Source: Cyanobacteriota bacterium (GTDB lineage Bacteria; Cyanobacteriota; Vampirovibrionia; Vampirovibrionales; Vampirovibrionaceae). Taken from it: a DNA stretch of 64,000 bases. A program made the position numbers and the translations under genes. The notes under the pieces are model-generated. The model did not search any database. It was given only the letters and a program-made list of their open reading frames with translations, and was not told the DNA's origin. Position 1 is the first letter of the stretch. Every line of letters begins with the position of its first letter. The stretch is from positions 130,197 through 194,196 of the forward strand of contig JAIEMW010000001.1 in the NCBI GenBank assembly GCA_019751815.1. Reading direction: 5' to 3'. This document shows positions 16,211-45,240 of the stretch, one piece after another.

Positions 16211-16247
16211 AATGGTGAAGAGTTAGTTTGGGAGATGCAGTATTAAG

Positions 16248-16736
16248 ATGAACCTGATTTTGTCGATGCTTATAGGATTGTGCGGTATGATCGCCAGTCT
16301 TTGGATTGCAATCCCCGGCTGGATAGAGTTTCAAGAAGCAGAAGCCAGCAAGCACTGGCCCTCTGTCAGTGCAAAGATGATTGTTTCTAGATTGACTCAA
16401 GAGAAGCATTGTCCTAGAGCGGACCGGCCTTGTTATTTCGTGTATCGCCCCCATTTTACTTACCAATATACCGTGAACAATATCTCTTATTGGAATAGCA
16501 GAATAGACTTTGGATCCCCGCCAGATTATACCGATAAGGGATTGGCAGACAAGCGTCTTAACGAATATGGGGTGGGTAGCAAGCTGATGGTATATTATGA
16601 TCCAAAAAACCCTCAGAACGCTGTGATGGTGCCAGGAAGAACCTATGGATATATCTGGTGGCAAGCGCCATTGCTTTTCTTTTTAGTTAGTCTCAGTTTT
16701 TTCTTAAATAGCGGAGGACGTTGGAAGAGGTATTAG
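16248..16736 (+). CDS. DUF3592-like membrane protein, paralog 2
   Basis: MVYYDPKNPQNAVMVPG. Highly similar to paralog 3 (GWIEFQEAEASKHWPS vs GWMEVQEAQASQHWPS). Confidence 0.55.
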   Translation: MNLILSMLIGLCGMIASLWIAIPGWIEFQEAEASKHWPSVSAKMIVSRLTQEKHCPRADRPCYFVYRPHFTYQYTVNNISYWNSRIDFGSPPDYTDKGLADKRLNEYGVGSKLMVYYDPKNPQNAVMVPGRTYGYIWWQAPLLFFLVSLSFFLNSGGRWKRY

Positions 16737-16822
16737 ACAATGGTAGTAAAAATCAGTCATAAACCCTGAGCGGTAAAACGGGTTGAGTTAGTTTGGGAGA
16801 GGCTTAGTTTAGGAGAGGCAAT

Positions 16823-17302
16823 GTGATGTTGGGTCGAATTTTCGCGAAACTCTTAGGGTTCTGCGGTGTGATTGCCAGTATTTATCTTGCGTTTGCTGGC
16901 TGGATGGAAGTACAAGAGGCACAAGCGAGTCAACACTGGCCTTCAATCACAGCAAGGATGATTGAATCTAGCTATACTCAGGAAGAACGCTGCTCTAAAC
17001 ACGAACGGTGCCATTTTGTCTATAAACCCCATTTTGTCTACCAATTTTTTGTACACAATACCCGTTATCAAAATAGCAAAATTGATTTTGGAGATCCTCC
17101 AGAGTATCAAGACGAGGCTCTGGTGGTAAGGCATATCGACGAACACCCGATTGATAGCTTGCTGAAGGTTTATTACGACCCCAAAGATCCACACAAAGCG
17201 GTGATGGTGCCTGGAAAAACCTTTGGAAGCCCCTGGTGGCTACTGCCATTTGTGGTGTTTATGTGCAGTCTTGCTGCAATGTTTGGCAAGCCTAAACGGT
17301 GA
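16823..17302 (+). CDS. DUF3592-like membrane protein, paralog 3
   Basis: KVYYDPKDPHKAVMVPG; same architecture as the two upstream genes. Confidence 0.55.
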   Translation: MMLGRIFAKLLGFCGVIASIYLAFAGWMEVQEAQASQHWPSITARMIESSYTQEERCSKHERCHFVYKPHFVYQFFVHNTRYQNSKIDFGDPPEYQDEALVVRHIDEHPIDSLLKVYYDPKDPHKAVMVPGKTFGSPWWLLPFVVFMCSLAAMFGKPKR

Positions 17303-17419: not shown

Positions 17420-17989
17420 ATGTTAAACAACAAGAAAGGCTGGATTTACATCGATGCCTTTGGACGGCTGAACGGCCGGTGGAATGTTCTAGACGCCTTT
17501 GGTGTCGGCTTTGCTGCTGTATTAGTACTTGGCGTGATGCTGGTGCAATCTGGGCTTTACCGGACATCCGGGCAGATGATTAAGGGTGAGACTGACTTGG
17601 AGTACACCGTCTACCTGCGAAATATCAAAACCAGTCAACCCAACCTGATCAAAGAAGGCAATAAGATTTCTCTGTCCATTCGAAATCAGCCTCGCGGAGA
17701 TGTCAGTGTTGTGAGTGTTCGTGTTGCTCCCAGGAAAAAAATTGCACCTAATGCACTGGGAGGTTTTCAGCTGATTGACGACCCGGAAGATCCCAATGGG
17801 TTTGATATGTGGGTGCGTCTAAAGGACCATGCCCAAATCACCGGGGATGGGTATGTTGCTAACGGAATTAAAATCAAAGTGGGCCTGCCAATTGAAGTGG
17901 AAGGCTTCGATTTTCGAGTTACTGGCGTTATTTTTGACATAGCTGCTAACACAGATACTAATAGTGGCCTCCCGGCGGCTGCCAAGTAA
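17420..17989 (+). CDS. DUF4330-like hypothetical protein
   Basis: N-terminus IDAFGRLNGRWNVLDAFGVGFAAVLVLGV resembles the cyanobacterial DUF4330 start (ILDxxGRLFGKxxxLD...). Confidence 0.45.
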   Translation: MLNNKKGWIYIDAFGRLNGRWNVLDAFGVGFAAVLVLGVMLVQSGLYRTSGQMIKGETDLEYTVYLRNIKTSQPNLIKEGNKISLSIRNQPRGDVSVVSVRVAPRKKIAPNALGGFQLIDDPEDPNGFDMWVRLKDHAQITGDGYVANGIKIKVGLPIEVEGFDFRVTGVIFDIAANTDTNSGLPAAAK

Positions 17990-24108: not shown

Positions 24109-25236
24109 TTGAGCACGATCGCACATATCGCCTTGAATGGGCACTGGGGATACATAAGGCGTATTGACGGGATGTCGACAATGACACCAATTGGAATGCT
24201 ACCGAATGGGACGGGATTTATGCAGGGCACAGGCCAGTATAATCCCCAACAATCAAGTTTTTCACCGGCGGGTTTTCCTCCACAGGGACTGGCAGTGAAC
24301 GGTCCGGTGGATATTTTGGTGCCAAAACCGATGCCCGGTATGCCGGCCTCATCGATGCCGCCCGTGATGATTCGGCCCAGCCAGCAAGGGGCTTATCCTG
24401 CCAGTGGCTTACCGCCACTGCCAGCACCATCTTACTCAATGGGTCCAGTGAATTACGCACAATCGATTCCAATGGCGGCATTACCGGATATTCCGCCGCC
24501 CCACCTGGTGGCACCCAACTTGTTCAGACCCAACTGGGTGAACGTACCGCCCAACACGGGACGTATTGGGGATATCCAGAATAACTTCTATAACAACCAA
24601 AGCGGTTATCCACCCGTGCCATACACACCTGCTTGGCCGGGATACCCTAATATGGCACCCTATCCGGGGATGCAACCCCCGCAAGGGCCTGCAGCGGCCC
24701 CACTCCCAAAGCCGCCTGAAAATATGCCGCCTGCTCCAGCACAGCCTGCACCGCCGGCCGTGCCAGAACAGAAGGGTCCCTCCTCTACAGCATTCCCTGT
24801 AGGCGGGCTCGATGATGCCACGGTCCGAAGTTTGAACGAACGGCTCAATAATGCCGTGCCTGGCGTCAGAGGCAAGGCGGGGATGGATCTCTTTAACATT
24901 CTCAGTGCCAATCCAGCACTGGCCACAGATCCACAGACCAAACCGTATGTCGATGCTTTCGTCCAAAAAATTATGAGCGATCCAGACTCATTGGTCCGTC
25001 AGTCCATGATTTTGGCCATGGATATGGGCATCATCAAGCAGGTCCCAGATACGGTGATTCAGCGTATGAGACAACTGCAGAGTCAGGAAGGCATGTATGG
25101 GTTGGAAAAAGGCGATATCGCTAAAATTCTCCCAACCTTAAATTTACCAACGGAAAATCAATTAATCCCGCCAGCGGCCAACGCCAATAGCAACGCCCCA
25201 GCGGGACAACGCTTAAATGTGGTTAGCCATAGTTAG
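24109..25236 (+). CDS. proline-rich hypothetical protein with ~150-aa globular C-terminal domain
   Basis: 375-aa ORF, the N-terminal two-thirds Pro/Gly/Met-rich. No recognisable domain; the true start may be downstream (MSTMTPIGM). Confidence 0.4.
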   Translation: MSTIAHIALNGHWGYIRRIDGMSTMTPIGMLPNGTGFMQGTGQYNPQQSSFSPAGFPPQGLAVNGPVDILVPKPMPGMPASSMPPVMIRPSQQGAYPASGLPPLPAPSYSMGPVNYAQSIPMAALPDIPPPHLVAPNLFRPNWVNVPPNTGRIGDIQNNFYNNQSGYPPVPYTPAWPGYPNMAPYPGMQPPQGPAAAPLPKPPENMPPAPAQPAPPAVPEQKGPSSTAFPVGGLDDATVRSLNERLNNAVPGVRGKAGMDLFNILSANPALATDPQTKPYVDAFVQKIMSDPDSLVRQSMILAMDMGIIKQVPDTVIQRMRQLQSQEGMYGLEKGDIAKILPTLNLPTENQLIPPAANANSNAPAGQRLNVVSHS

Positions 25237-25248
25237 GGAAACAGACAA

Positions 25249-25872
25249 ATGGCCTCAAATATTGGAATCAAAATAGCCGGGATCGCTGCCGCTGCAATTG
25301 CAGGGTGGATGGTGAAAGACCGCTATAACGGCAATGCCGGGAAATGGATGCAGCAATATAACGCCCACGAGATGGAGCTAGAATATGACTACATGAAATA
25401 TGGCTTTGGCCATTATTCGGGCCGTCCTGGTATGGACGGCATGGCCCATGGGCTTAAACGACAAAGCTTGTTTGGCCCCGGTGGGGTTCTATCCATCTAC
25501 AGCCGGATTAAGACCCAGGTGGAAGGGTTTGTAAACGACGTTCTCCTGACCCCTGAGGCTGCCATAACGGCCGGTGGTTTATATATGGCCTTGGGTAAAA
25601 AGCTGTTTACGCCCTTTAAGTTTATTGGGCGCGTGATTAAAGATTCTGTCACTAAGCCGACCGGCTTGGTGCGAATGGCCGGTAAGGGGATCATGAGTCT
25701 CTTGGGCAAAATCAAGTTTGGGAATCCAGGGGCACTCATCGCCAAAATGGGCTGGGGAGCCCCCTTGGTAGCCTTAGCACTGGGTTACTTTGCCTACACG
25801 TTCTACCGAGTGAACTCGCACGAGGAACAACATGACTACTGGCGTGACTTTACGTCGGGTGCAAGCCACTAG
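25249..25872 (+). CDS. hypothetical membrane protein
   Basis: 13 nt after the previous gene. N-terminal GIKIAGIAAAAIAGWMV and C-terminal GAPLVALALGYFAYTFY hydrophobic helices. Followed by a rho-independent terminator. Confidence 0.45.
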   Translation: MASNIGIKIAGIAAAAIAGWMVKDRYNGNAGKWMQQYNAHEMELEYDYMKYGFGHYSGRPGMDGMAHGLKRQSLFGPGGVLSIYSRIKTQVEGFVNDVLLTPEAAITAGGLYMALGKKLFTPFKFIGRVIKDSVTKPTGLVRMAGKGIMSLLGKIKFGNPGALIAKMGWGAPLVALALGYFAYTFYRVNSHEEQHDYWRDFTSGASH

Positions 25873-25931: not shown

Positions 25932-25993
25932 GGCTACTGACGCTATTAGTAACAGGCTACTGGACGTCGTTTGTAAATGGGCTACTGGACGTA
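25932..25993. repeat. three spaced copies of GGCTACTG(G)ACG; the last copy overlaps the final codons of the sigma factor gene
   Basis: ggctactgacgc, ggctactggacgtcg, ggctactggacgtag at roughly 23-bp spacing. Confidence 0.7.
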
Positions 25994-26686
25994 GCCCTTA
26001 CGCGTCAATTCCAATTTAATCTTGTCCAGACCAGACTGTACGATGCGTGAAATCCGAGACGGTGAGATATTAAAGGCATCACCAATCTCACGCATTTTCA
26101 TGTTCTTGTAGAAGCGGGCTTCAATGATCTGACGCTCCCGCTCAGGCAGCTTGGTAATGGCTTCGCGGACCAGTTTCGCCATTTCCTTCAATTCACTGCG
26201 TTCTTCCGGCGTATAAGAACCATCCCGAATCTCGTGCGGGTTTTCCGCATCCATCATGCTGTCAACAGACAAAATGGTCTCGTACACAGCTTCACGCACT
26301 TGGGTTTTTTCCGCTTCAAAACCGTCTCCGGCGACACTGCTGTCAGTGGCCGTGGCGTCATCATCTTTGGAACCGTCCATGCTCACCTGTTTGAGGGCAT
26401 ACCATTTGTAACGGTACCGTAATTCGTTGCGGATCGCCCATTTAATGGCCGTGGATAAATAGGTAACGTTATATTCTGTGTTGGGATTGGACGTCAGCAA
26501 GACGTGAACAGCAATCGCCCCGATATTCACCAGTTCGCTGTGATCGATCAAGTGATTGGGCAGCCGGCTGTATTCCACCCGCGCGACCGTTTCAATCAGA
26601 TCAACATAGTCGTTGACCGTGCGCTGGGGTTTATTGGGACTTGATGACGATTTACCGGTAGTCATAGGAACAGTCTGTACGCTCAT
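25982..26686 (-). CDS. RNA polymerase sigma factor, sigma-70 family group 3 (FliA/SigF-like)
   Basis: ATG at 26684-26686 with GGAG 7 nt upstream. Region 2 ELVNIGAIAVHVLL...YLSTAIKWAIRNELRYR; region 4 LPERERQIIEARFYKNMKMREIGDAFNISPSRISRIVQSGLDKIK. Confidence 0.85.
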   Translation of the reverse strand: MSVQTVPMTTGKSSSSPNKPQRTVNDYVDLIETVARVEYSRLPNHLIDHSELVNIGAIAVHVLLTSNPNTEYNVTYLSTAIKWAIRNELRYRYKWYALKQVSMDGSKDDDATATDSSVAGDGFEAEKTQVREAVYETILSVDSMMDAENPHEIRDGSYTPEERSELKEMAKLVREAITKLPERERQIIEARFYKNMKMREIGDAFNISPSRISRIVQSGLDKIKLELTRKGYVQ

Positions 26687-26803
26687 TCGTAACTCCACTC
26701 TAAAAATTGTACACTGAAAGGCCGAAAAGCCTAAAATGTAATCGAAACCGTGCTTAGGGCACACACACCCGTGTGATCATATAACCTCCATCCTCGTGAC
26801 TCA

Positions 26804-28611: not shown

Positions 28612-30357
28612 TTGGCGAACGCTGGACAACCCATACCAGGGCAATTTATGCCGGGGCAGCCTAATTCGGGAATGCCTTTTTATCCTGGACAAATGCCGAT
28701 GCCTCCTGGTGGCTATATGCAACCCGGTGCTGTAGCCTTAGATCCTCGTTTGCAGCAACAGTCTAGACTCGCAGCACAGCAAGCGCTGGCGAATGGAACG
28801 CCACCTGATAAGTTTGAATCTCCCTTTCCATCACCGTCACAAATGCTGATGGGTGGAGCTGCCGGTATCGGGCTTGCAGAACTGATTCGACTACCGTTTA
28901 ACCGCGATAACCACGCGTTAATTCGAGCTGCCCAGTGGTTAGATCATTTGCCTGGTATCCGTTGGGCGAACAAACATATTGCCAGTGGTCAGTCCTGGTT
29001 GCTCAAGTCAACCAACAATAGTCCGTGGACCAAGCAGTTTTTGTATCAAATACCACCAGAAGCTGCCGAAAAACTGGCGATTCAGCAAACTGTGCAGGGC
29101 TTCATCAAACAGTTACCCGCAGACCTTTTGAAGCAACCCGCCGTGGGCCCCCTGCAAAAGGCAGCGACCAAGGAACAATTGGATACGGCTCTGGTTATTC
29201 TGCGGCGTCATTTTTCACGCGCGCAAGAGCCTGCTATTGTCGATTCGCTTCTGAAGAAAACCACCGTTTCTCCCAGAATCGCCACATCACTGGCCGGGAA
29301 AACCATTCCACAAGCAGAACGGGTGATAGCGGGTCTTAAAAAGCTGACTCCATCTGAGTTGGAAGCCCTGCAAGGACTTCTGAAAACGGCATCTCGCCAT
29401 GCTGACAAAGCGGCAGAAGTGGCCATGAAGCAGGCCAGTAAAAAGCTTCCCAAGCAAGTCTTGGGACTGTCCAAGCGAATTGAAGGTCTGAACAACCACT
29501 TCTTCCCGGTCTACCGGGAACAATTCCACTTGATGGATCAGCTGACCCGTACCACGGCGAAAGGGGCGAAACCGATTGGGCCTATTGGTCGTTTCTTCGC
29601 GGGCACGATGAACTATATCCGCCGGATCTTTGGAGGGGACAGTCTCACCAGCTATGTGGGATCGTCGGCTAAAAAAGCCGCCGGGCAAGAAGGGATTCTC
29701 GGTCGTCTGATGGGGCCCTTTATGGTAGGGGCTCTGGCAATTGGACAATCGTTTAGTGAGGCACACAAAGCAGAAAAAGGCGAAAAGGTAAAAACCTTCT
29801 TCCATGATTTTCTGGGCACCGGGATTGGCAGTTTTGTCGGCTGGGAGATTGGTCGCAGTTTGTTAAACCGCACCGGGGTCGTCTCCAAACTGATGGGCAG
29901 TTTTGGCAGTAAATTTATCCGCGTTTTACCTCGCTTTATTCCAGGCATTGGTGGTTGGGGCTTCACCCTAGCCGGTGCCGCCGTCGAACTTCTCTCCATG
30001 TTCGTGATTGCCATTCCCTTTCAGCGTGCCGGTGAGTGGATTGCCCACCGACTTTTTGGGAAACCCAACAAGGTCCTCGAAGAGGACCTTAAAGAAAAAG
30101 GCATCGTGCTGGCAAAACCATTGCCCGCTGGGGGCGATCAGCAGCAGCGACTCCGTCGGCCAAGTCGTTTTGAAGGTTTCCATCAGGCCAGAGCGCATCA
30201 TGTGCAAGCGCCTTCCGCAACACCGAATATTTCCTATTCACTCTCACCAGAGGATATTGCCCGCAGTGAGGCAACGGCCTCTGCCCAGCAGCAAGAAAAA
30301 GCCCTGTTGGATCAGATCAAAAACTTTGGCTCCCCGATGCAGGCATATCACGACTAA
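28612..30357 (+). CDS. hypothetical protein: Pro/Gln-rich N-terminus, helical middle, Gly-zipper-rich hydrophobic C-terminal region
   Basis: 581-aa ORF (TTG at 28612, alternative ATG at 28648). The C-terminus has repeated GxxxG/small-xxx-small segments (GPFMVGALAIGQSF, GTGIGSFVGWEIG, IPGIGGWGFTLAGAAV). Confidence 0.45.
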   Translation: MANAGQPIPGQFMPGQPNSGMPFYPGQMPMPPGGYMQPGAVALDPRLQQQSRLAAQQALANGTPPDKFESPFPSPSQMLMGGAAGIGLAELIRLPFNRDNHALIRAAQWLDHLPGIRWANKHIASGQSWLLKSTNNSPWTKQFLYQIPPEAAEKLAIQQTVQGFIKQLPADLLKQPAVGPLQKAATKEQLDTALVILRRHFSRAQEPAIVDSLLKKTTVSPRIATSLAGKTIPQAERVIAGLKKLTPSELEALQGLLKTASRHADKAAEVAMKQASKKLPKQVLGLSKRIEGLNNHFFPVYREQFHLMDQLTRTTAKGAKPIGPIGRFFAGTMNYIRRIFGGDSLTSYVGSSAKKAAGQEGILGRLMGPFMVGALAIGQSFSEAHKAEKGEKVKTFFHDFLGTGIGSFVGWEIGRSLLNRTGVVSKLMGSFGSKFIRVLPRFIPGIGGWGFTLAGAAVELLSMFVIAIPFQRAGEWIAHRLFGKPNKVLEEDLKEKGIVLAKPLPAGGDQQQRLRRPSRFEGFHQARAHHVQAPSATPNISYSLSPEDIARSEATASAQQQEKALLDQIKNFGSPMQAYHD

Positions 30358-33736: not shown

Positions 33737-34744
33737 TTGGAGTCTCTCATTCCCACGATGCCAAACCCACACTCGATATCAACGGCGTTGACTTCGTCAA
33801 CCGAAGAAAGTTCTGACATGACGGTGACCCTCCCTCTGAGAAAGTCGGAGCTTACCCTTCAACAAAAAATCGTCTCGATTCGACAGGCCTTTGACTTCTG
33901 GTGCCGTTATACAAGCAAAGGCTTTCCCTGGTCTTTATTGTCCGTTTTAAGCCCCAAAGAGAGAGCCACCGAAAAAGCCTACTCTTATCAAGCGTGGACT
34001 TTTTCGATGGATAAAAAAACCGGCACCGAACTCGAAACGCTGATCGCATTTTGGCAGTGGCTGTATGAGAAACATTGCCTGCCAGATTACCGAATAAACG
34101 ACTCCAATTTTGCCGATTTAGCCGTTTTAAAGGTATTAGACGTGGGCACCAAAAACGGCTTGCTGCCGCTTGCCGGTGGTATTTTTTGGACGATGAACCA
34201 GGATCATTTAATAAACATTGAGCTTGAAGGCATAGAAATCGATCCCTACCGGCTCGTATGGGATGCATTTTCTCAGAAACCGTTAACACGTCAGCAGCAG
34301 GCACTGCGATGGTTCCAGGAATTTTCGGCAGTAAATACGCAATCTCCATTGTGTAGGTTAACGTTCCATACTGGCAATATTCTAAAATTTTCGCCCTCTC
34401 AAGCGCCGACTTCTCAGACAAAACAATATCCCTTCATCACCCATATTCTCCCCTTTGTTTTGCCAGAACCTTGTTTGGCCTGGGGGCTCCCGCTGTCCTT
34501 GTTTCAGCCAGAAGCTATCTTCCAAAAATTATTGTCCTTATTGTCACCGGAAGGCTGTTTAATCATTGTCAATCAGGGTGAGATTGAAACCCAAGCCCAA
34601 GAAGCGATTTTTCAGCACGTGAAACGGATTTCTTCCCGTGAATTTGAATATCATTTTTTAGGCCCTGTGCCCGATCCATTGTTGCTGTGGCAATATCCAC
34701 GTTTTGCCTGGAAAATTAACTTAATTGATAATGAGCGTGAGTGA
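33737..34744 (+). CDS. hypothetical protein with a degenerate class I SAM-methyltransferase-like fold
   Basis: VLDVGTKNG (motif I-like, with G-x-G altered), GIEID (acidic post-I), LLSPEGCLIIVN (motif III-like). Confidence 0.4.
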   Translation: MESLIPTMPNPHSISTALTSSTEESSDMTVTLPLRKSELTLQQKIVSIRQAFDFWCRYTSKGFPWSLLSVLSPKERATEKAYSYQAWTFSMDKKTGTELETLIAFWQWLYEKHCLPDYRINDSNFADLAVLKVLDVGTKNGLLPLAGGIFWTMNQDHLINIELEGIEIDPYRLVWDAFSQKPLTRQQQALRWFQEFSAVNTQSPLCRLTFHTGNILKFSPSQAPTSQTKQYPFITHILPFVLPEPCLAWGLPLSLFQPEAIFQKLLSLLSPEGCLIIVNQGEIETQAQEAIFQHVKRISSREFEYHFLGPVPDPLLLWQYPRFAWKINLIDNERE

Positions 34745-34755
34745 AATATGATGTC

Positions 34756-35532
34756 ATGACAAAAAAACCGATCGTGGTCTGGGTGGCCAGTACAAACCCT
34801 CATAAATTAAACGAGCTTCAGGTTATCTTGCGACTGCTAAAACTTGAGCAAGAAATGGTGTTCAATATCCCGGATAATTTGGTGGATGTGCCTGAAACGG
34901 GCCTGACTTTTCTGGACAATGCCAGAATCAAAGCCGAACATTTTGTTGAGAGATTGAGAAATATAAACGCTGATAATCATGACTGGATTCTGGCGGAAGA
35001 CTCCGGGCTGATTGTTCCTGCACTGAATGATATGTACGGATATGATCCCTTTCCGGGTGTTTTTTCTAACCGTTGGATGACCCCCACTATTCGGGATGAG
35101 TTGCTCACAGCACCAATGAACTCAGACATTCCCTCCTATATTGATTCACCAAAAATAACGGATATAGATAAAAACTGCGGTATATTGGCCTTGTTAAACC
35201 ATAAAATGCTTAATGGTAAAGACGTGAGTCGAGAAGCTCGCTATGCTTGCGCTATGTCACTCTGGAATCTGAAGACTGAAATCGCGACCGCATACGGGGA
35301 AATGTCTTTGCAGGTTCGAGAGCTAAACGAGCATACTTTTTTAAATGAGTCTGCACAAGCAGAAAAAAATGATCTCCCCCGTGGCTTTGGGTATGATCCC
35401 ATTATGCTTTCTGTGCCCAGTATGCGGTGCTTAAGCCAGATGAGTATTGAGGAAAAATCTGCCATCAGCCACCGGGCCAATGCATTTAGGCAACTCATCG
35501 CCTTAACTAAACGGGGCCCCGCCCATAATTAA
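34756..35532 (+). CDS. rdgB: non-canonical purine NTP pyrophosphatase (Ham1/RdgB family) with an internal insertion
   Basis: VWVASTNPHKLNELQ (N-terminal K motif), AEDSGL, PRGFGYDPIM, EEKSAISHRANAFRQL. About 250 aa versus the typical ~200. Confidence 0.75.
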   Translation: MTKKPIVVWVASTNPHKLNELQVILRLLKLEQEMVFNIPDNLVDVPETGLTFLDNARIKAEHFVERLRNINADNHDWILAEDSGLIVPALNDMYGYDPFPGVFSNRWMTPTIRDELLTAPMNSDIPSYIDSPKITDIDKNCGILALLNHKMLNGKDVSREARYACAMSLWNLKTEIATAYGEMSLQVRELNEHTFLNESAQAEKNDLPRGFGYDPIMLSVPSMRCLSQMSIEEKSAISHRANAFRQLIALTKRGPAHN

Positions 35533-36246
35533 ATAACTTTGGGTGTTATGCGTTAAATAGGCTTTACGACCGTATTTTTGAGAGATACTGTCTGTGTATC
35601 CACCGCCATTGACTTCGGGGTATACCACAAGCGTGTTAATTTTTAGTCTCACAATGGGTGCGGTGATATCATCACCGGTGACTCCGTTCGTTGGGTTCCC
35701 GGTCGTATTGTAGGCTTGAAAACAAGCATTTGACCGAGTTGCCGAATCATACACCGTTGAAGAAAAATTGCCACAGCGGACTTTAAACGTGACCGCATTG
35801 GCTGGTCCGATGGAAAAGGCGTCGCGTCGGTTTAAATTGCTCTGAGCTTTGGAGGGAGAACTTCCGGGACAATTTGTATTGGTGGTGATTGCGGGATTCA
35901 CATTGTTCCATGAGCAGCGTGTGATGGTTTTGTTGGTATCATCAACAATATACTTAACCGTGTGTAGCTGAGACCCTCCTAAAAAATCATTGGTATCTAA
36001 CACCACGATATCGCTGTCATTGATCGAACTGGTTTTGATATTTCGGGCATACTGAAAATCTTGACGCATCCAATCCAATACATTGGAAAGAATGGTCTGA
36101 GAGTAAGTATACACCCGATCTGTATTTTGACCGTTCAGCATTCCGCTGGCAACAGAAGAGACAGCGGCAGACAGGGCAAGAAACATCACCAGGGTCACGG
36201 CAATCTCTATGAGACTAAAACCAGTTCTTCGGGGCTGAGCCAACAC
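35503..36246 (-). CDS. prepilin-type N-terminal cleavage/methylation domain protein (type IV pilin-like), paralog B2
   Basis: Leader MLAQPRRTG | FSLIEIAVTLV, with Gly-1 and Glu+5. Its 3' end overlaps rdgB convergently by 30 nt. Confidence 0.8.
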   Translation of the reverse strand: MLAQPRRTGFSLIEIAVTLVMFLALSAAVSSVASGMLNGQNTDRVYTYSQTILSNVLDWMRQDFQYARNIKTSSINDSDIVVLDTNDFLGGSQLHTVKYIVDDTNKTITRCSWNNVNPAITTNTNCPGSSPSKAQSNLNRRDAFSIGPANAVTFKVRCGNFSSTVYDSATRSNACFQAYNTTGNPTNGVTGDDITAPIVRLKINTLVVYPEVNGGGYTDSISQKYGRKAYLTHNTQSYLIMGGAPFS

Positions 36247-36271
36247 AATTCGTCCTGTAATATCGTCCTGT

Positions 36272-37060
36272 TTAACCGTAAGGTGTATCCGCTAATATGG
36301 CATAGCTTTCAGAGGCATGAGTGTAATAAGGAATTCTTCGATACTTTTGAGACACAGTATCGGTGTATCTATTGGTGCGGTTGTTAACCAGGGGGTAAAC
36401 GACAATCGTATTAATTTGCAGGCGCGATATGGCGTTAGTGGGATCATAAGCACCCCACCAATTATTACCCAGTTTAGCTTCTCCATTAGTGTTATAGCCG
36501 TTAAAGCAGTAACCATTTTTCGCGGCTGTATTGTAATTCGATGTTGAAAAACGTCCACATCGAACCCTAAATTGGACCATATTGCTAGGCCCGATACTCA
36601 ACGGACGCTGTGCCATCGCACTGAGACTGGGATTATATGCGCCAAAAGCGTTTACGCTTGTATAACGCCAGTTTTCGGTATATTCCCAACGGGTAAGATA
36701 TTTTGTCGCGCCCCAATCATAGACGGAATAAATAACAATTCTCTCTGGTGTTGATCCCCCGGAAGAATTGGGGATACTGGTTTTAAGCATGATCTGCTCA
36801 TAAGAGCGTGTTTGCCAAGGTATAAAAACATCTTTGGCATACTGAAAGTCAAGCCGCATTTGATCGAGCATATTATTCATTATGACTTGGTTGTAGCTAT
36901 AAACCTGATCTGTCGTTTTGTTGGCGAGCATGGTGGTAATTGCGCTGGCAACAGTGGCTGACATAATGGTGAACAGCACCAAGCCAACCGCCATCTCCAT
37001 CAGAGAGAAGCCTCTACTCAGTTGCAGGGCTCTTGAGTTGGCATCATTGATTTGAGACAT
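36272..37060 (-). CDS. prepilin-type N-terminal cleavage/methylation domain protein, paralog B1
   Basis: ...QLSRG | FSLMEMAVGLVLF. Shares blocks with the downstream gene (DQMRLDFQYAKD / FRVRCGRFS / INTIVVYP). Confidence 0.8.
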   Translation of the reverse strand: MSQINDANSRALQLSRGFSLMEMAVGLVLFTIMSATVASAITTMLANKTTDQVYSYNQVIMNNMLDQMRLDFQYAKDVFIPWQTRSYEQIMLKTSIPNSSGGSTPERIVIYSVYDWGATKYLTRWEYTENWRYTSVNAFGAYNPSLSAMAQRPLSIGPSNMVQFRVRCGRFSTSNYNTAAKNGYCFNGYNTNGEAKLGNNWWGAYDPTNAISRLQINTIVVYPLVNNRTNRYTDTVSQKYRRIPYYTHASESYAILADTPYG

Positions 37061-37161
37061 AAGTTTAAAAAGCTTTCTATTCTGGTCACTTCAATAACTG
37101 CCTCTTGGGCTGTCTCTAGTTACTAATTATAGGAGGTTATTTGCAGTGTTAGTGTTGGACT

Positions 37162-37845
37162 TTATAGGGCCGCTGCTGTATTGGAAAATGCCGCGGCATC
37201 AACTGTAGCGAATCGATCACCAAGCTTGGAAATAGGGAGATCCCAATCCGCTGCGGCTAAGCACGACACCTTATATTTACCGAACCCACCTGTACATTTG
37301 GGTTTGGGAGGTTGGCTGGGCCCCACTTCTACGATTCGTTGTAAATTGGCAGGACCGGCCAGTGTAAACGAGTTTGCAACAGCCTCCGAGTTAATATTGG
37401 TTGCATTCACACCCCCGTTGGAGAGTAGGTTCATTTTGGCTATATTTCGTCCCCCAACAGTGACGGTAATTTCTTTGGTGTCAGGATTGGTCACTGAGAG
37501 GACTAAATTACTGGATGAAGAACCTGAAACCATATCCAAAACAGCATTTAAATCACCGTTGGTAAAATCAACGGTCTGCTTGTCCAAGGTGTTGGATACT
37601 TGAGAAAACGCTTTTTCCAATGCCCCTTGTGCCACTGCTGCCGCAAAACCATTGGCTTTAGGGATACCCATTGACATTTTACTGTAACTTACGCCCATGA
37701 GAACAGCCACAAGTACTGAAGTTACGGCAATCTCTAACATCGTGAGGCCTCGTTCGGCTTTGGGGGCAATGAATGCCTGTTTTATTTTTCTGCTGATGTT
37801 AGCAATCATAAACTTTAATCCCTCTAATTCTCTCTGCCGAATCAA
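37162..37845 (-). CDS. prepilin-type N-terminal cleavage/methylation domain protein, paralog A2 (C-terminal Cys pair)
   Basis: ...KAERG | LTMLEIAVTSVLVAV. C-terminus KCTGGFGKYKVSC, a possible disulfide loop. GAGGGA SD before the ATG. Confidence 0.75.
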   Translation of the reverse strand: MIRQRELEGLKFMIANISRKIKQAFIAPKAERGLTMLEIAVTSVLVAVLMGVSYSKMSMGIPKANGFAAAVAQGALEKAFSQVSNTLDKQTVDFTNGDLNAVLDMVSGSSSSNLVLSVTNPDTKEITVTVGGRNIAKMNLLSNGGVNATNINSEAVANSFTLAGPANLQRIVEVGPSQPPKPKCTGGFGKYKVSCLAAADWDLPISKLGDRFATVDAAAFSNTAAAL

Positions 37846-38022
37846 AGTTGACTATCACAGTGTTACTTTTTACGGCTTACTTCTTATGGGGTGGCATCGA
37901 CAAAAAAACGCGTCTCTAAACCGAGCTCCTTCATTTTGTTACAAATGTATAAGTAATCCCTCTCTGTCTTCGCTTCTGCTGGTCTTTCGATAGGACCTTG
38001 GCACGGGTTAGTTTTCGTCTGA

Positions 38023-38059
38023 GCAAAAAAGCCTTTCAAAAACTTGAAAGGCTTTTTTA
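38023..38059 (-). terminator. rho-independent terminator (bidirectional hairpin) after the first pilin-like gene
   Basis: aaaaaaGCCTTTCAAaaacTTGAAAGGCtttttt: perfect 10-11-bp stem, 4-nt loop, flanking A and T runs. Confidence 0.8.
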
Positions 38060-38111
38060 GAAAAATGATTAGAAACAATCTTCTCTGAAGAGGGTCTCCT
38101 TGCGTTTAAGT

Positions 38112-38702
38112 TTAAGCAGGAGGCAAAGCACTAGCCCAGGCGGCAGCAGTGCTTTCAGGAAAGCGCCCGCCCATGGGAACTGGATCAGGGATCGCTCTGC
38201 CCCGTCTACCGCGTCCTCCTGTCGGTCCTATTTCGATAATCCGGGCAAGCGTTGCATCGGGTGTAATGGTAAATTGTGATGTGAGAGAGGGATCGATACC
38301 CAGGGCTTTAATGCTACCGTTGGGTTGAATTTGATATGACGCTAAGCGAGGGAAGCCGGGAGCACTTAAAACAAATTTTTTATTGGTAACATCCGTCACA
38401 GAGAGTACCAAGTTGCCACTCGAAGAGCTGGATACCAGATCGAGTGCGGTATTGAGGTCATTAAAAGTTAGCCCGTCAGGTCCATTAACCGGTTTATCCA
38501 GCGTATTGGTAACCTTGATAATGGCCTGCTCCACAGCCGCTTGGGTGGTGGCTGCCATCAGTCCGTTGGCTTTGGTGGGTGCTTGGTTATACTTAGCGTA
38601 AGCAAAGGCAGAAAGTGTTGCTACGAGAACCATACAAACAGCCATTTCGACCATAGAAAATCCCAAGGTCTTAAGCCGTGTCGGTGTAAAGGCATTGGGC
38701 AT
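38112..38702 (-). CDS. prepilin-type N-terminal cleavage/methylation domain protein, paralog A1 (candidate major pilin)
   Basis: MPNAFTPTRLKTLG | FSMVEMAVCMVLV, a 14-aa leader from the ATG. An upstream TTG at 38720 is unlikely to be the start. Followed directly by the strong terminator. Confidence 0.75.
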   Translation of the reverse strand: MPNAFTPTRLKTLGFSMVEMAVCMVLVATLSAFAYAKYNQAPTKANGLMAATTQAAVEQAIIKVTNTLDKPVNGPDGLTFNDLNTALDLVSSSSSGNLVLSVTDVTNKKFVLSAPGFPRLASYQIQPNGSIKALGIDPSLTSQFTITPDATLARIIEIGPTGGRGRRGRAIPDPVPMGGRFPESTAAAWASALPPA

Positions 38703-38998
38703 CGAAATTAATTTATTCAAATGTTAACTCCTTCTTAGAAAAATCTCTCAGATCTCTAAAATCTCTCGTGGTGTTTTTTCCTCTCGGTGGATTGATATCA
38801 CCAAACAGCAATTAAGGTCTTATCGACACCTTCCTGAAAATCTAAACAGAAACAACATAATTTGTTACATTGCGTGTTTGAGACCTCCCTTTGGTGAGGC
38901 CCTTCTGTGATCCCGCACGGAATCCGTCTGTATCCGGTGTTAAAATGAAGATTCAGGCCCTTTTTCAAAGAGAGTTATTGTAGAGAGTCACTCCTTCT

Positions 38999-39448
38999 AT
39001 GCCAGAACAATTTGTTCGATGGTACGACCAGGATCCCCTGTTATCGCGGGCTTTTGCCGCGATGCAGCAACTTCCCTTGGATGTCTTGTTGATTATGGCA
39101 AAACTGCTACTAACCACCGAAGAAGGGGTGAAACTGGACCAAAAACGTTCATCCCAGCTCCGTTCATTGGGTGTAGATAGAACGGTGGGGCTGATTAAGT
39201 CCAAGCAGAGAAATCGCTGGTATGACAAAGACCCCCTACTACACCGGGCGGTCAACTTTATCTACGTGTGTAATCCGACCATGAGGCATATTCTGGCGGA
39301 ACAATTAAATTCGTTGATTAATGCCTATGACCTCTATTTGGATACGTGCCAGAGCAAGGGAAAAAGTGTGGACTTACGGGATGTTGAGAATTTGTTTCAG
39401 TACGTCTACCAGCGGAATTTTGAATCGCTCGAAGAGTCACCAGAATGA
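38999..39448 (+). CDS. hypothetical protein with internal repeat (RWYDxDPLLxRA x2)
   Basis: 149-aa ORF; the repeat appears at residues ~7 and ~85. Confidence 0.4.
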   Translation: MPEQFVRWYDQDPLLSRAFAAMQQLPLDVLLIMAKLLLTTEEGVKLDQKRSSQLRSLGVDRTVGLIKSKQRNRWYDKDPLLHRAVNFIYVCNPTMRHILAEQLNSLINAYDLYLDTCQSKGKSVDLRDVENLFQYVYQRNFESLEESPE

Positions 39449-40202: not shown

Positions 40203-43200
40203 ATGGATGTGGAAAATTCACCGCTCAGGCTTGCAGAAGGTCCCACGGGATCTGGAAAGACGCAGTGGCTAATACAAAACGCCTGCGATTTTCTTGCCCC
40301 CCCGCAAGCGAACCCCTCAAGCCATCCCTCGATCAATCCCTCAAGCAATTCCGATCAATTGCTGATTCTCACCAGTAATCGCGCCCGGCAATTGGCCTTT
40401 CGCAATGCGCTGACAAACAAACTAGCTGATACAGGAAGCAACATACAGGGCGGGGCCCTCGGCGGTTTGATGATCTACACCTTCTCTGGCTGGGTGCGCA
40501 CACAACTCCAGAACTACTGGCCTTTGGTGGAAGAAGCAATTGCACGTCAGATGGGAAGCGGCGAAGCCAGCATTCGTCCTTTGCAGCTGGCAGGTTATGA
40601 ACAGACAGAGTTATGGCTGAATGAACTTTGGCAATGGGGTTGCCAGCAGCATCCAGAATTGGCACCTGTCATTAAGGGCAGTGCACGGATGTATGTGAGC
40701 CAGCTGGTACGGCGAGCCCGCTTGCGTTCAGAGAACAATCTAACCAGGTCTGAGTTTTATCATCGTGATGGCCTTCTTGAAAATCCACTTCAGACCATGG
40801 TGAAAGAGATTGAGCAGACATGTGACCGTTGGAGCTATGTGCTTAGAGCCTTAGATCCTAATAAGCAGCTGGACATGTTCTCTTGGCTGCTGAAACATTC
40901 TGAAATTTTTCAAAAAGCCTGTGGTTTCCCCGCCATTCAGGCGGTTCTGGTGGATGATGTGGATGAAACCCACCCTGCGCAACAGGCTTACGTCGAATGG
41001 TTGCTTCCACAAGTTGATTTTCTGGCAATGGCGGCTGATCCAGAAGGTGGGTCCCGCCGCGGTTATCTCAATGCCTACCCCGCAGGGTGGCAGGTGCTCA
41101 AATCAAAGAATCCACAAGTCCCAGTGCTGCAGCTTCCCCCCATTACGGAACACGGAAACTTAGACAACGCCAATCGGCTTTTGCGAAACTGGCAATCTGC
41201 TTACGGTCCCTTTGAATGCATGTCTCCTGATGGGGTGAGAGTCCATAATTCTCAACTTACACGGGTGGAAATGTTTGAGGCAGTGGCCAACCGAATAGAG
41301 GAAGATGCAACGCATAGCCCTGAGCAAATCGTATTGGTGTTGCCCAAAGCAGATCGCCTCAGTAAAACGGCCCTTTCCTTGTGTTTAAACCGTCGGCGAA
41401 TTCCTCATTTTTGGTTGACAGGGACACTCAGGCCGGTTGATGATCCTCTGTGTCGTGGCTTTGTGTCGCTGATTCAAATACGATACAGCGCCTTATGGCA
41501 ATGGCCCTTATCGCGAATGGAATGGCACCATGTGTTTCACGTGGCCTTGAATATTCCTCAGTTTCGCGGGGATAAGGTGAGTGATGCCCTCCATTTGCTG
41601 ATTGAAAAACTCGTGCAAGGTGTTATTTCTCCTCTTGAGTTAGACTCCTCTGAGCTGTGGCGAGAGATCAACCTCTCTGATACTGCAGCGCAAGCGCGTT
41701 TAACTCACCTTGCAGGCTGGCTAAAGGATATGGGGGAGAGTGACGACACGACATTCACCTTTGAAGACTTGTTGTACCGTGCTTTTCATGATGTGGTTCG
41801 TGTTTATGCAACAGACGAAACTTTGTTTGAGTCTGTTGAGCGTGTGATACAGAATTATCAAAGCTATTGTACGGTTCAGCGGGCTCGCCGAAAGTGGGTT
41901 CAAGGGGTTGCGTCATCGGTTCAGGGAAATTTATGGGAGCACAGTCTGACACAGGATTCTCAAGATGCCAAGCGCTGGCTGGAGCAACTGAAGCAAGGCA
42001 CCGTTGCCGATACCCCGGCTGAGATGCCAGACATTCCCCAGGGAGTGGTTGTGATTGCCACACCACAAAAATTGATAGACCTGGAAATGACAAGGCCAGT
42101 GCAGTATTGGCTGGATGCCACTTCACGAGAATGGGCCCGCAGCGACGACGCAGCCCTGTACAATAGCTGGGTATTTTCTCCCAATTGGGACGGAAAAACG
42201 GTTCAGTTAGGCGAAGCGCAAGCACAAGCGCTTATTCGAGAAAGGGCCGGTCATGTTTGCAGACAGTTGATGCTGCTGGCCACAGAGAGTGTCGAAGTGT
42301 TTACCAGCGACTTGGATGACTACGGTTTCTCTCAGCATGGCCCTCTTCTGTCTAGAATGCTGCCCGTTCAAGAGGCGTTGGATATTCCCACAGAAGAGAG
42401 TTTGCTCAAGCAACTCAGGGAAGATCAAAAATCGGTTCTGGATTATCAAAGCGGCACGATGGCGATTACAGCCGTACCTGGTGCCGGAAAAACATACGTT
42501 AATGTGGTTTTGGTGCAGGCCCTGGTTGCCCGTGGTATTCCACCGGATGCGATTTTGCTTTTGACATACATGGATGCGGCGGCCAAAACGCTACTTACTC
42601 GCTTAAAGACAAGACTCAATTGGACTAAGGGGAAACTGCCTGTTGTTTCTACCCTTCATAGCTTGGCATTTCGGGTACTGATGGAGCACGATCATGCGGT
42701 AAAGTTGGGATACGATCCAGATGAAATGAAGATTATGGATGATTTTGAGAGCGATACGCTGCTCAATGAGGTGGTTTCACATACCTTGATTGAGGGAGAG
42801 CATGAAAACACTTGGCGAAAGCTGGTTGCAGCAGGAATTAAACATGCCAAAACCTTGGAACTAATGCCAGATAAGCTTGAACAGGCGCTCTCACAGCTCA
42901 AGGTGCAAGAAAACAAGCTTTATCCCAAGCTGCGTCGCTTCTTAAATGCTTACCATCTTTACGAAAACCGGAAACAACAAGCCGGGTTATGGGACTTTAA
43001 CGATCTCATTTTGAAGGCAATCCAGTTGCTGGAGCAAGAAGCATCGATTCTGGTCTATTATCAAGCCCAATTTCAGGTGATTATTGAAGATGAAGCCCAA
43101 GATTCTTCCTTGTTGATGCAACGTTTTATTGGGTTATTGGGCGGTAACACACCCAATCTGATTCGGACCGGGGATACCAACCAGTCCATCACCACCACAT

Positions 43201-44510
43201 TCAATGCGGCAGACCCCCAGGTGTTTCGAGATTTTATTGCCAGTAGTCAGCACCAGGTTGTGATGCGGCAAAGTGCCCGCTCTGCCCCGGAAATTATTAC
43301 CTTGGCCAATCAATGGCTGGATACGATCACAGGTACGCCTGGTCTTGAAAACACCTTTTCCCCGGTTGCGATGCAGCCCGTTACCACAGTGAGTGGTGAA
43401 ATCCAAAACCCAACGCTGATTGAACCCATTGTTACGACCCTCTATAACACGTATGAAGATGAAATCACCGACTTGGTCCAAACTGTTCAGCGTCTGAGAC
43501 GACACTATCCGGACAAGCAGGTGGCTGTCTTAACCTTTACCAATGAACAGGTGCTGGACTTGGCAAGGCGGTTTCAAGCGTCTGGTCTGATGGCGGTGAG
43601 TTTGACGGATAAAGCCGACTCACAACCGGTTTACCAGGTCTTGTTCCATTATTTATCTTGGTTAGAGTCTCCAGGACAGTGTGAGAGGCAGTTGGCATTT
43701 TTTGATGCCTATCAGAAAACCAGAGATGGCGCGCAGACTGTGCCCGCAAATTTCACCGAAGACATTCCTGAGGAAACCCCACATAAAAGGGCACTGAGGC
43801 AGCGAGAGTATCTCGCATCAACGGTCCTTATCCATCAACGACCAGACTGGATAGAAGATGCCACCCTGCTGCAGTGGTTCTTCGATCTCGCCGATGATAC
43901 CCGCCTGGTGTCCGACCGCAATATGACCCAAGTCATTGTGCGTGCGACGAACCGTCTGTTTGAAACGCCTGAGGCGCGAAGTCAAGGCTATTTATTTGCG
44001 CTTCAGATAGAAGAAATCCAGCGGCAGCTGAAAGAGGTCGTGACACTCATGCCCCTTGAAGCCCTGATTGAAAGATTAAGCTGGTTGATGAGCAAAGGCT
44101 TTCGCCATAATAGCTTTAATTCCGATGATTCTCTGAAAAATCCAGACGTGATCCAGGTGATGACGCTCCATAAATCCAAGGGACAAGAGTTTGACTTCGT
44201 GTTGATCCCGTTCTTACAAAAAAAAGAGTTTAAAAGCAAAGATCCCGACAAACTGGTTTACTGGTTGGACGGGCTAGCTGCCAGAGTTGACACTGCTTTA
44301 GGCCCTATCAATGAGTTGATTGAAGATCCCATGGCAGTGGCTAAGCAAGAAGAACGGGCACGACTTATCTATGTGGGCATCACTCGCGCGCGCCAGGGCT
44401 TGTTTATTTCTGCCCATGAAAAGAAAATACCTCCCTCCGTGGCTTTTACCGAACTGAAACGGCTGACGGAAAGCTTGAATATAGCTAAAGAGGGTGTCCA
44501 TGCCAACTGA
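40203..44510 (+). CDS. tandem SF1 helicase: AddB-like N-terminal ATPase/helicase-like half fused to a UvrD/AddA-like helicase, without a C-terminal nuclease
   Basis: The N-terminal half has Walker A GPTGSGKT, IYTFSGW and a degenerate motif II VLVDDVDETHP. The C-terminal half has AVPGAGKTY (motif I), LWDFNDLI, VIIEDEAQDSS (motif II), VMTLHKSKGQEFDFVLIP (motif V) and LIYVGITRARQGLFIS (motif VI). The ORF ends right after motif VI. Confidence 0.8.
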   Translation: MDVENSPLRLAEGPTGSGKTQWLIQNACDFLAPPQANPSSHPSINPSSNSDQLLILTSNRARQLAFRNALTNKLADTGSNIQGGALGGLMIYTFSGWVRTQLQNYWPLVEEAIARQMGSGEASIRPLQLAGYEQTELWLNELWQWGCQQHPELAPVIKGSARMYVSQLVRRARLRSENNLTRSEFYHRDGLLENPLQTMVKEIEQTCDRWSYVLRALDPNKQLDMFSWLLKHSEIFQKACGFPAIQAVLVDDVDETHPAQQAYVEWLLPQVDFLAMAADPEGGSRRGYLNAYPAGWQVLKSKNPQVPVLQLPPITEHGNLDNANRLLRNWQSAYGPFECMSPDGVRVHNSQLTRVEMFEAVANRIEEDATHSPEQIVLVLPKADRLSKTALSLCLNRRRIPHFWLTGTLRPVDDPLCRGFVSLIQIRYSALWQWPLSRMEWHHVFHVALNIPQFRGDKVSDALHLLIEKLVQGVISPLELDSSELWREINLSDTAAQARLTHLAGWLKDMGESDDTTFTFEDLLYRAFHDVVRVYATDETLFESVERVIQNYQSYCTVQRARRKWVQGVASSVQGNLWEHSLTQDSQDAKRWLEQLKQGTVADTPAEMPDIPQGVVVIATPQKLIDLEMTRPVQYWLDATSREWARSDDAALYNSWVFSPNWDGKTVQLGEAQAQALIRERAGHVCRQLMLLATESVEVFTSDLDDYGFSQHGPLLSRMLPVQEALDIPTEESLLKQLREDQKSVLDYQSGTMAITAVPGAGKTYVNVVLVQALVARGIPPDAILLLTYMDAAAKTLLTRLKTRLNWTKGKLPVVSTLHSLAFRVLMEHDHAVKLGYDPDEMKIMDDFESDTLLNEVVSHTLIEGEHENTWRKLVAAGIKHAKTLELMPDKLEQALSQLKVQENKLYPKLRRFLNAYHLYENRKQQAGLWDFNDLILKAIQLLEQEASILVYYQAQFQVIIEDEAQDSSLLMQRFIGLLGGNTPNLIRTGDTNQSITTTFNAADPQVFRDFIASSQHQVVMRQSARSAPEIITLANQWLDTITGTPGLENTFSPVAMQPVTTVSGEIQNPTLIEPIVTTLYNTYEDEITDLVQTVQRLRRHYPDKQVAVLTFTNEQVLDLARRFQASGLMAVSLTDKADSQPVYQVLFHYLSWLESPGQCERQLAFFDAYQKTRDGAQTVPANFTEDIPEETPHKRALRQREYLASTVLIHQRPDWIEDATLLQWFFDLADDTRLVSDRNMTQVIVRATNRLFETPEARSQGYLFALQIEEIQRQLKEVVTLMPLEALIERLSWLMSKGFRHNSFNSDDSLKNPDVIQVMTLHKSKGQEFDFVLIPFLQKKEFKSKDPDKLVYWLDGLAARVDTALGPINELIEDPMAVAKQEERARLIYVGITRARQGLFISAHEKKIPPSVAFTELKRLTESLNIAKEGVHAN

Positions 44511-45240
44511 TGGATCGTTCCAAGCAATCACTGCGGATCGCTTAAAATCCTGGTCTCGCTGCCAAAAGCAGTATGAGTTTCAGTATGTAAAAGCCCTCCA
44601 CTGGCCCACGGATACGCGCTCTTTTGCATTGGGAAAAGATATTCACAAACTTCTCGATTACCAGGCCCGCGGGCTGGATGTCACACAGGTGGTTCAGACA
44701 GCCTCTCCCTTGATTCAGCAGATGTGGGCTGCCTTGTCAGACTATCCCTTGGTAACGATGCCTGCCTTAAGAAGCGAGTGGGCCTTTCATATTGATCTAG
44801 ATCATGATCATGATTTAACGAGTGGATTATGGCTTACCGGCAGGGTAGACCGGATTGTCTGGCTGGAGCAACAAGAAATGCTCTGTATTGTTGACTGGAA
44901 GACAGGGACTGCGGTGCCAAAAGACCCTGAAAACGACTGGCAGACGCAAGTATATTTGTATGCTGTCTATGAAGCCAGGCACCAGCTTGCATTGCCAGAA
45001 AACATTACCCATGAACAGCTTTGTTTTAAGTATGTTGAGGTGCCTACCCAGAAACAGTCTGACCAGAAGCAACCTATCCAGATAAAAGAAAAAACGGTGG
45101 TGTACTCAGGCGAAAAGCATCGATTGGCCAAGCAGCGGCTTCTGGATACGGCACTCAAGCTCCAAAATTCGACAGAATATGTGTTGCCCAAGCGTTGTCC
45201 AGACAAGTATTGCGCCTATTCTTCGGTTTGCGGCATCTAA
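44500..45240 (+). CDS. PD-(D/E)XK nuclease with Cys cluster (Cas4/AddB-nuclease-like, probable Fe-S)
   Basis: ATG with AAGAGGG SD overlaps the helicase stop by 11 nt. GRVDRIVWLEQQEMLCIVDWKTG (D...E.K core). One N-terminal Cys plus CPDKYCAYSSVCG at the C-terminus. Confidence 0.75.
   Translation: MPTDGSFQAITADRLKSWSRCQKQYEFQYVKALHWPTDTRSFALGKDIHKLLDYQARGLDVTQVVQTASPLIQQMWAALSDYPLVTMPALRSEWAFHIDLDHDHDLTSGLWLTGRVDRIVWLEQQEMLCIVDWKTGTAVPKDPENDWQTQVYLYAVYEARHQLALPENITHEQLCFKYVEVPTQKQSDQKQPIQIKEKTVVYSGEKHRLAKQRLLDTALKLQNSTEYVLPKRCPDKYCAYSSVCGI

Follow-up and report, generated by a model that had tools for sequence, protein, structure and literature searches.

The 64,000 nucleotides analysed here (the window; Cyanobacteriota bacterium, NCBI GenBank assembly GCA_019751815.1, contig JAIEMW010000001.1, positions 130,197 to 194,196) contain four consecutive minus-strand open reading frames (ORFs) at 35503-38720, and the question that this locus raises is what kind of proteins they encode and how their genes are expressed. 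We consider it likely, with a probability of about 0.7, that the products of these four ORFs are subunits of a type IV filament, i.e., a type IV pilus (T4P) or a pseudopilus like the one in type II secretion systems (T2SS), because the proteins carry class III signals and score near the cutoff of TIGR02532, because the two that were modelled (A1 and B1 below) are predicted as a helix followed by strands, and because the genes are under selection and possess a conserved promoter and terminator. The genes, referred to as A1, A2, B1, and B2, are:

38112..38720, minus strand: A1, prepilin-like protein of 202 amino acids, identical to MBY0449146.1; candidate major subunit
37162..37809, minus strand: A2, paralog of A1, 215 amino acids from the ATG at 37809 (ORF listed as 37162-37845), K2X01_00785
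36272..37060, minus strand: B1, prepilin-like protein of 262 amino acids, identical to MBY0449144.1
35503..36246, minus strand: B2, paralog of B1, 247 amino acids, with a GTG start 25 nt past the B1 stop

At NCBI (locus tags K2X01_) A1 and B1 are named prepilin-type proteins and A2 is “hypothetical.” The class III signal, in which a basic leader with Gly as its last residue precedes a hydrophobic +1 position, a Glu at +5 and some 20 hydrophobic residues, is present in all four: behind the basic leader, its final Gly is followed by [FL][ST][ML][VLI]E[MI]AV and then by more than 20 hydrophobic residues (the A1 leader reads MNKLISMPNAFTPTRLKTLG, followed by FSMVEM, and that of A2 MIANISRKIKQAFIAPKAERG, followed by LTMLEI). 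A six-frame scan of the window for the prepilin motif returned these four proteins and one false internal match in a PfkB kinase. TIGR02532 places A1 (19.8 bits) and B1 (17.9 bits) above its cutoff of 16.3, with A2 (16.1) and B2 (15.8) slightly under it. The Pfam N_methyl family (PF07963), which had been proposed as a check of the prepilin assignment, matches all four proteins at E ~1e-3, with scores (17.7-19.4) that stay under the gathering score of 21.2. Two start codons had to be revised by comparison with two related genomes, represented by a 3.7-kb ENA contig (L001) and a 1.46-kb Logan contig (L083). A1 was earlier thought to start at 38702, but its start is most likely the TTG at 38720 rather than this ATG, because the TTG is preceded by an AAGGAG ribosome-binding site that is kept in all three genomes (window, L001, and L083). 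The start of A2 was moved from 37845 to the ATG at 37809 because in L083 the TTG further upstream does not share the reading frame of the gene.

The four proteins fall into two paralogous pairs, A1 and A2 with 41% identity (E 2e-22) and B1 and B2 with 40% identity (E 6e-52), and the part common to the A and B families is the N-terminal signal and helix segment only, both by BLASTP and by profile-profile comparison with hhalign. This bears out the first-pass annotation, which had described the genes as prepilin-type in two such pairs; the sequence blocks that it quoted as shared within each pair are indeed present. It was also right in stating that the globular parts are not those of a canonical PilA: A1 has no match to the Pfam Pilin family and lacks the C-terminal disulfide D-region of a type IVa major pilin (PilA/PilE). 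Its single Cys is located in the membrane helix and it has no Cys pair. The claim that a Cys pair occurs only in A2, where it is C-terminal (Cys172-Cys183), has to be withdrawn. B1 has a pair, Cys168/185, B2 has four cysteines (Cys111/126 and Cys158/175), and the VRCG...CF Cys pair is invariant across the B family. The A1 orthologs also have an Arg/Gly/Pro-rich, probably disordered tail (residues ~168-202 of A1), after which a conserved motif G-x-R/K/H-F-x4-AAA-F/W is found that is common to A2. A Ser-rich loop, VS[SG]S[SN][ST], is kept by all A proteins; loop and tail motif are possible modification sites.

Both globular domains are almost orphans, with relatives in three samples only. For the A and B families, 5.8 billion proteins were searched with two single sequences and one profile, which recovered the window's own proteins and orthologs from two other samples; members of the A family were confined to the source metagenome-assembled genome (MAG), L001, and L083. 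For the B globular domain, an exhaustive profile search of 1.84 billion cluster representatives returned only the B1/B2 clusters and one spurious repeat protein, and the B profile had no match in GTDB genomes or JGI metagenomes. A sequence search of the PDB yielded nothing for the B family and, for the A family, weak and non-significant matches, the best of which (best E 0.081) are to pilin N-terminal regions. The gene order in L001 is the same as in the window (a divergent gene for a 149-amino-acid protein, then A1, A2, B1, and the beginning of B2), and L083 covers the same 149-amino-acid gene, A1, and the first part of A2. The orthologs of the window and L001 share 80% of their amino acids for A1, 70% for A2, and 67% for B1, and the ratio of nonsynonymous to synonymous substitution rates (dN/dS) is 0.14, 0.23, and 0.13, respectively, at a dS of ~1-2. 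The coding sequences are, therefore, under purifying selection. All three proteins diverge much faster than the flanking 149-amino-acid protein (97% identical). The G+C content over the cassette (34001-38000) is 44.5%, whereas most of the window has ~47-52%; signs of mobile elements were not seen, and the cassette is syntenic in the related genomes.

Structure prediction provides information on the parts of the proteins that sequence searches do not place. The model of B1 (predicted local distance difference test score (pLDDT) 61, predicted template modelling score (pTM) 0.60, 3 sequences) starts with an N-terminal helix of 54 residues, behind which come two beta-sheets, and its best structural matches are the T2SS pseudopilins XcpW, EpsJ, and GspJ; it thus has the two-sheet GspJ fold, although the confidence of the model is moderate. 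In the models of both A1 and B1 a long N-terminal helix precedes beta-strands. Prediction of a pilin fold, suggested earlier as a check, was thus successful for B1, but the A1 model is poor (pLDDT 41) and only the order of its secondary-structure elements fits the pilin fold. On the basis of the B1 model, B1 and B2 are assigned to the GspJ/PilW structural class, a match that cannot separate a secretion pseudopilus from a pilus. Members of this class combine the canonical pilin core with a second sheet, occur in both T2SS and T4P, and are thought to prime fibre assembly within the tip complex (PMC5131608). With the sequence models of the class, only B2 gave a match, to TIGR01711 (13.1 bits; cutoff 64.85), and Pfam T2SSJ and PilW gave none at E <=1.

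How these genes are expressed is indicated by three elements on the same strand:

38820..38869, minus strand: A1 promoter, TGTAACAAA-N13-GTTTAGA-N13-GTCGATAA
37894..37943, minus strand: A2-B1-B2 promoter, TGTAACAAA-N13-GTTTAGA-N13-GTCGATGC
38025..38058, minus strand: intrinsic terminator hairpin after A1, AAAAAAGCCTTTCAA-GTTT-TTGAAAGGCTTTTTT

A new finding is that both transcription units carry the same duplicated and conserved promoter, which is not of the sigma-70 type. The sequence GTTTAGA-N13-GTCGAT has exactly two mismatch-free copies in the window (38822-38847 and 37896-37921, minus strand), one preceding A1 and the other A2, and the TGTAACAAA box likewise occurs exactly twice (38861-38869 and 37935-37943, minus strand), each time 13 nt upstream of GTTTAGA. 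The 22-base composite TGTAACAAA-N13-GTTTAGA-N13-GTCGAT gives two matches at <=3 mismatches in 128 kb, against none in 100 shuffles, and no further copies exist across the window. L001 and L083 retain both copies, resulting in six instances with <=2 substitutions each and with different spacer bases; the spacer between TGTAACAAA and GTTTAGA is 13 nt long, except for a single instance with 14 nt. Since it is kept although the neighbouring genes have a dS of ~1 or higher, the composite promoter is under functional constraint. At the A1 promoter the TGTAACAAA box falls within an imperfect palindrome (AACAA-N7-TTGTT). Its position and this palindrome suggest a site for an activator or a repressor.

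No canonical sigma-70 hexamer was found in the region upstream of A1 or A2. The elements recognised by SigF in Synechocystis (TAGGC at -32 and GGTAA at -12) occur neither in the 278 nt upstream of A1 nor in the 302 nt upstream of A2. The published consensus is TAGGC/GGTAA for Synechocystis SigF and TAAA-N15-GCCGATAA for sigma-28 (PMC2532724). Compared with the latter, the -10 box GTCGATAA agrees with GCCGATAA at 7/8 positions at A1 and its counterpart GTCGATGC at 5/8 positions at A2, and the distance from TTTA to the -10 box is 15 nt, as in the sigma-28 consensus. However, there are 89 sigma-28-like matches of this quality, where 49 are expected, and the resemblance is to be treated as a lead only because such matches are common by chance. 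The -35 box GTTTAGA is closer to the SigB-type GTTTAA. The promoter is probably read by an alternative sigma factor of the group-3 type. Rfam gave no family for the window or for the 5' untranslated regions, and folding of the alignment of the two 5' untranslated regions revealed no convincing structure.

The strong terminator that had been proposed after A1 is real: its hairpin has a 15-bp stem (-22.7 kcal/mol, z -3.7) with A and T runs on its flanks. L001 has an equivalent hairpin at the same place with a different stem sequence, as established by folding, and L083 has an apparent one, judged by eye without folding, and hence the terminator is conserved as a structure. A1 has its own promoter and terminator and a second promoter precedes A2, and the cassette therefore comprises two transcription units, A1 and A2-B1-B2, in agreement with the first-pass annotation. 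The spacer between A2 and B1 is not conserved between the window and L001; the 25-nt junction between B1 and B2 and the GTG start of B2 are kept in L001. B2 (minus strand) and a gene of the Ham1 family (plus strand) overlap convergently at their 3' ends by 30 nt (35503-35532), and the one terminator-like site after B2 (35463-35482) is weak and lies inside the Ham1-family coding sequence.

A possible regulator lies 9 kb from the cassette:

25982..26764, minus strand: divergent sigma-70-family factor; candidate regulator only

This gene is the sole minus-strand gene between flanking plus-strand genes. It had been described as SigF/FliA-like, but it falls under both of the cutoffs concerned: it passes the general sigma-70 model TIGR02937 (77.2 vs 42.9), its best subfamily, FliA/WhiG (TIGR02479), is reached with only 70.1 against 189.6, and the cyanobacterial SigF model NF005644 with 31.3 against 261. 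Pfam detects region 4 only, which is also the only region that aligns with FliA of Escherichia coli (28%). The composite promoter was not found upstream of the sigma gene itself. A link between this factor and the pilin genes is, therefore, a hypothesis, unproven as the gene stays under the FliA and SigF cutoffs. The suggestion that SigF drives these genes, as it does pilA in cyanobacteria, was borrowed from photosynthetic species and is not supported here, given the absence of TAGGC/GGTAA and the missed SigF cutoff. The host itself probably belongs to an uncultured, non-photosynthetic lineage of Cyanobacteriota, judging from one protein, HemB: the closest match of HemB from the window is in a Vampirovibrionales MAG (63%), the other 79 of the best 80 matches derive from Bacillota, Actinomycetota and others, and no oxyphotobacterium is among these 80. 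A synteny look at this closest genome found no prepilin genes near HemB.

If the four proteins are indeed filament subunits, each precursor would be inserted in the membrane, and a prepilin peptidase whose gene lies elsewhere would then cleave it behind the conserved Gly, and machinery likewise encoded elsewhere would extract the subunits from the membrane and polymerise them via the hydrophobic N-terminal helix. The roles of A1, A2, B1, and B2 within such a fibre can be assigned only tentatively. With a promoter and a terminator to itself and the best of the ribosome-binding sites, A1 would be the bulk subunit, and A2-B1-B2 would form a second transcript for low-abundance subunits; this division into a major and minor subunits, already proposed earlier, is plausible, although it derives from expression signals. 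B1 and B2, with their predicted GspJ/PilW-class fold, may prime assembly and sit at the fibre tip, as in known systems, and A2, as a paralog of A1, is a candidate for a minor or linker subunit that joins the tip complex to the A1 polymer. Both transcripts would start from the same type of promoter, read by a group-3-type sigma factor, and the upstream TGTAACAAA box may contact an activator or the alpha subunit of RNA polymerase.

Several observations weigh against filament subunits. A1 is more conserved (80%) than A2 and B1 (67-70%), whereas higher variability is often seen in major pilins. The B1 model is, with its pLDDT of 61 and 3 sequences, of moderate confidence only, and beyond the N-terminus none of the proteins belongs by sequence to a named pilin family in Pfam, NCBIfam or the PDB. 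Furthermore, the genomic context was scanned with Pfam and NCBIfam on ORFs of >=150 amino acids across the 64-kb window, minus a few that overlap longer opposite-strand ORFs, and Pfam detected no gene for a prepilin peptidase, ATPase, platform, alignment or secretin protein among them. Partners like GspI/GspK or PilV/PilX/PilY1 were not found either; in all three genomes the cassette itself comprises the A and B families alone, without the I- and K-type partners of gspHIJK or pilVWX. The first-pass annotation had correctly reported the lack of pil and gsp assembly genes nearby, but nothing favours its suggestion of a “novel” assembly system. Pilin genes that are unlinked to their machinery are commonplace. 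Published genomes of Vampirovibrio and Gastranaerophilales carry T4P genes (pilA, B, C, D, T) as well as flagellar genes (PMC4451040; PMC5877343), which makes unlinked machinery the default expectation here.

The structural matches of B1 to XcpW, EpsJ, and GspJ, together with weak N-terminal matches to gspG, gspI, gspJ, and HpsC models, raise the question of whether the four proteins are instead T2SS-type pseudopilins, forming a short periplasmic piston for the secretion of proteins or polysaccharides like the Hps pseudopilins of Nostoc. This seems unlikely: in none of the three genomes does the cassette have gsp genes as neighbours, the curated gsp and Hps models all score far under their cutoffs, and A1, monocistronic, strongly signalled and with its own terminator, resembles a major pilin gene. 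The position of the cassette, alone among housekeeping genes, and its globular domains without homologs would also fit surface or periplasmic proteins that are processed by a prepilin peptidase but are not fibre subunits, comparable to the stand-alone four-gene Verru_Chthon cassette, to protein D of which A1 has a very weak N-terminal match (E 0.08). However, this match covers the shared N-terminal helix only and reaches 12.9 bits against a cutoff of 70, and B1 is predicted to possess a genuine minor-pilin fold beyond its signal; we regard such non-fibre proteins as very improbable. Finally, the Pfam N_methyl scores below the gathering score and the near absence of homologs in public data could be taken to mean that the ORFs or their signal motifs are chance or annotation artefacts. 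This explanation is already refuted by the occurrence of the motif at the N-termini of four adjacent same-strand ORFs, by orthologs in two other samples with dN/dS 0.13-0.23, and by the conservation of the promoters; the conserved ribosome-binding sites and terminator and the specific match of the B1 fold to pilins also speak against it.

Filament subunits thus remain the preferred interpretation. A far more specific version, in which the cassette encodes a lineage-specific fibre with an A-family major subunit of an unseen fold, primed by a heterodimer of the two GspJ-like paralogs in place of an I-J-K or V-W-X trio and switched on as a dedicated regulon of the sigma factor 9 kb away via TGTAACAAA/GTTTAGA/GTCGAT, with attachment to prey in a Vampirovibrio-like predator as one possible use, is decidedly speculative and improbable.

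As type IV pilin-like subunits the four proteins are of a known kind; unusual are the small number of sequence relatives, the two J-type paralogs without I or K, and the non-sigma-70 promoter. Closest to B1 and B2 are the GspJ-class pseudopilins XcpW (3NJE), EpsJ (2RET), and GspJ (3CI0) and the T4P counterpart Tt1219 of Thermus (5G23)/PilW. They differ from this class in that sequence identity is only 7-12% and the curated GspJ model is not reached, that the cassette has two tandem J-like paralogs with no GspI/GspK or PilV/PilX partner nearby, and that the B proteins exceed the solved domains by 60-90 residues in length and contain a conserved Cys pair. Like the SigF-controlled pilA1 of Synechocystis and pilA of Nostoc, the cassette combines a pilin gene with a non-sigma-70 promoter in a member of the Cyanobacteriota, with a gene for an alternative sigma factor in the region (PMC2532724; PMC6495340). 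Unlike in these systems, the promoter is TGTAACAAA-N13-GTTTAGA-N13-GTCGAT and not TAGGC/GGTAA, the sigma factor fails the SigF model, and the host is probably not an oxyphotobacterium. The -10 box (7/8 positions of GTCGATAA at A1, 5/8 at A2) and the TTTA spacing of 15 nt resemble those of sigma-28 (FliA/SigD) promoters, TAAA-N15-GCCGATAA, but the -35 box is GTTTAGA here and TAAA there, and there are no flagellar genes in the window. In type IVa minor-pilin operons (fimU-pilVWXY1E; pilA9-slr2019 of Synechocystis) tandem prepilin genes are co-transcribed apart from the major pilin gene, as in the cassette. Unlike these operons, the cassette has three minor-type genes only and no large PilY1- or PilX-like subunit, and its proteins show no sequence similarity to theirs beyond the N-terminus.

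If our interpretation is correct, the locus would represent a compact, delimited group of proteins that make up a fibre, one of them a candidate major subunit and the other three candidate minor subunits. It would also provide a defined, conserved promoter from a branch of the Cyanobacteriota that is uncultured and little known. Genome-wide searches for the promoter motif can define genes co-expressed with the fibre, e.g., for machinery, motility or predation. Two GspJ-like paralogs without I- or K-type partners would be a small variation on the priming of type IV filaments, the general understanding of which is unchanged.

The neighbour of the cassette is the divergently oriented gene mentioned above:

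38999..39448, plus strand: conserved 149-amino-acid protein of unknown function, divergent from A1 and syntenic in all three genomes

In the relatives it is located at 367-807 (minus) of L001 and 3-281 (minus) of L083. Its high amino acid identity in L001 is retained although the DNA is only 86% identical. The protein contains an internal repeat, RWYDxDPLLxRA, present twice, and has no match in Pfam, NCBIfam or the PDB; a scan of JGI data with this neighbour for diverged cassettes by synteny gave no match. It could be functionally linked to the cassette, for example as a regulator, because it adjoins it in all three genomes.

The remainder of the window contains housekeeping genes (HemB, the Ham1 family protein, NusA, IF-2, RecR, MutL, and DnaJ), two-component regulators, lipopolysaccharide genes, a UvrD-like helicase with a PD-(D/E)XK nuclease, and proteins with QRPTase and FAD-binding domains that resemble NadC/NadB. 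Eight of the scanned ORFs have no family match; ORFs of 375, 207, 581, and 335 amino acids near the sigma gene or the cassette (24109-25872, 28612-30357, and 33737-34744, plus strand) match neither Pfam nor NCBIfam. At 15632-17302 and 17420-17989 (plus strand) lie genes for three DUF3592 paralogs in tandem and, behind them, one for a DUF4330 protein. At 40203-45240 (plus strand) the UvrD-like helicase has 1435 amino acids, of which the N-terminal ~700 residues are unassigned, and its end is overlapped by the nuclease gene; together the two resemble AddAB.

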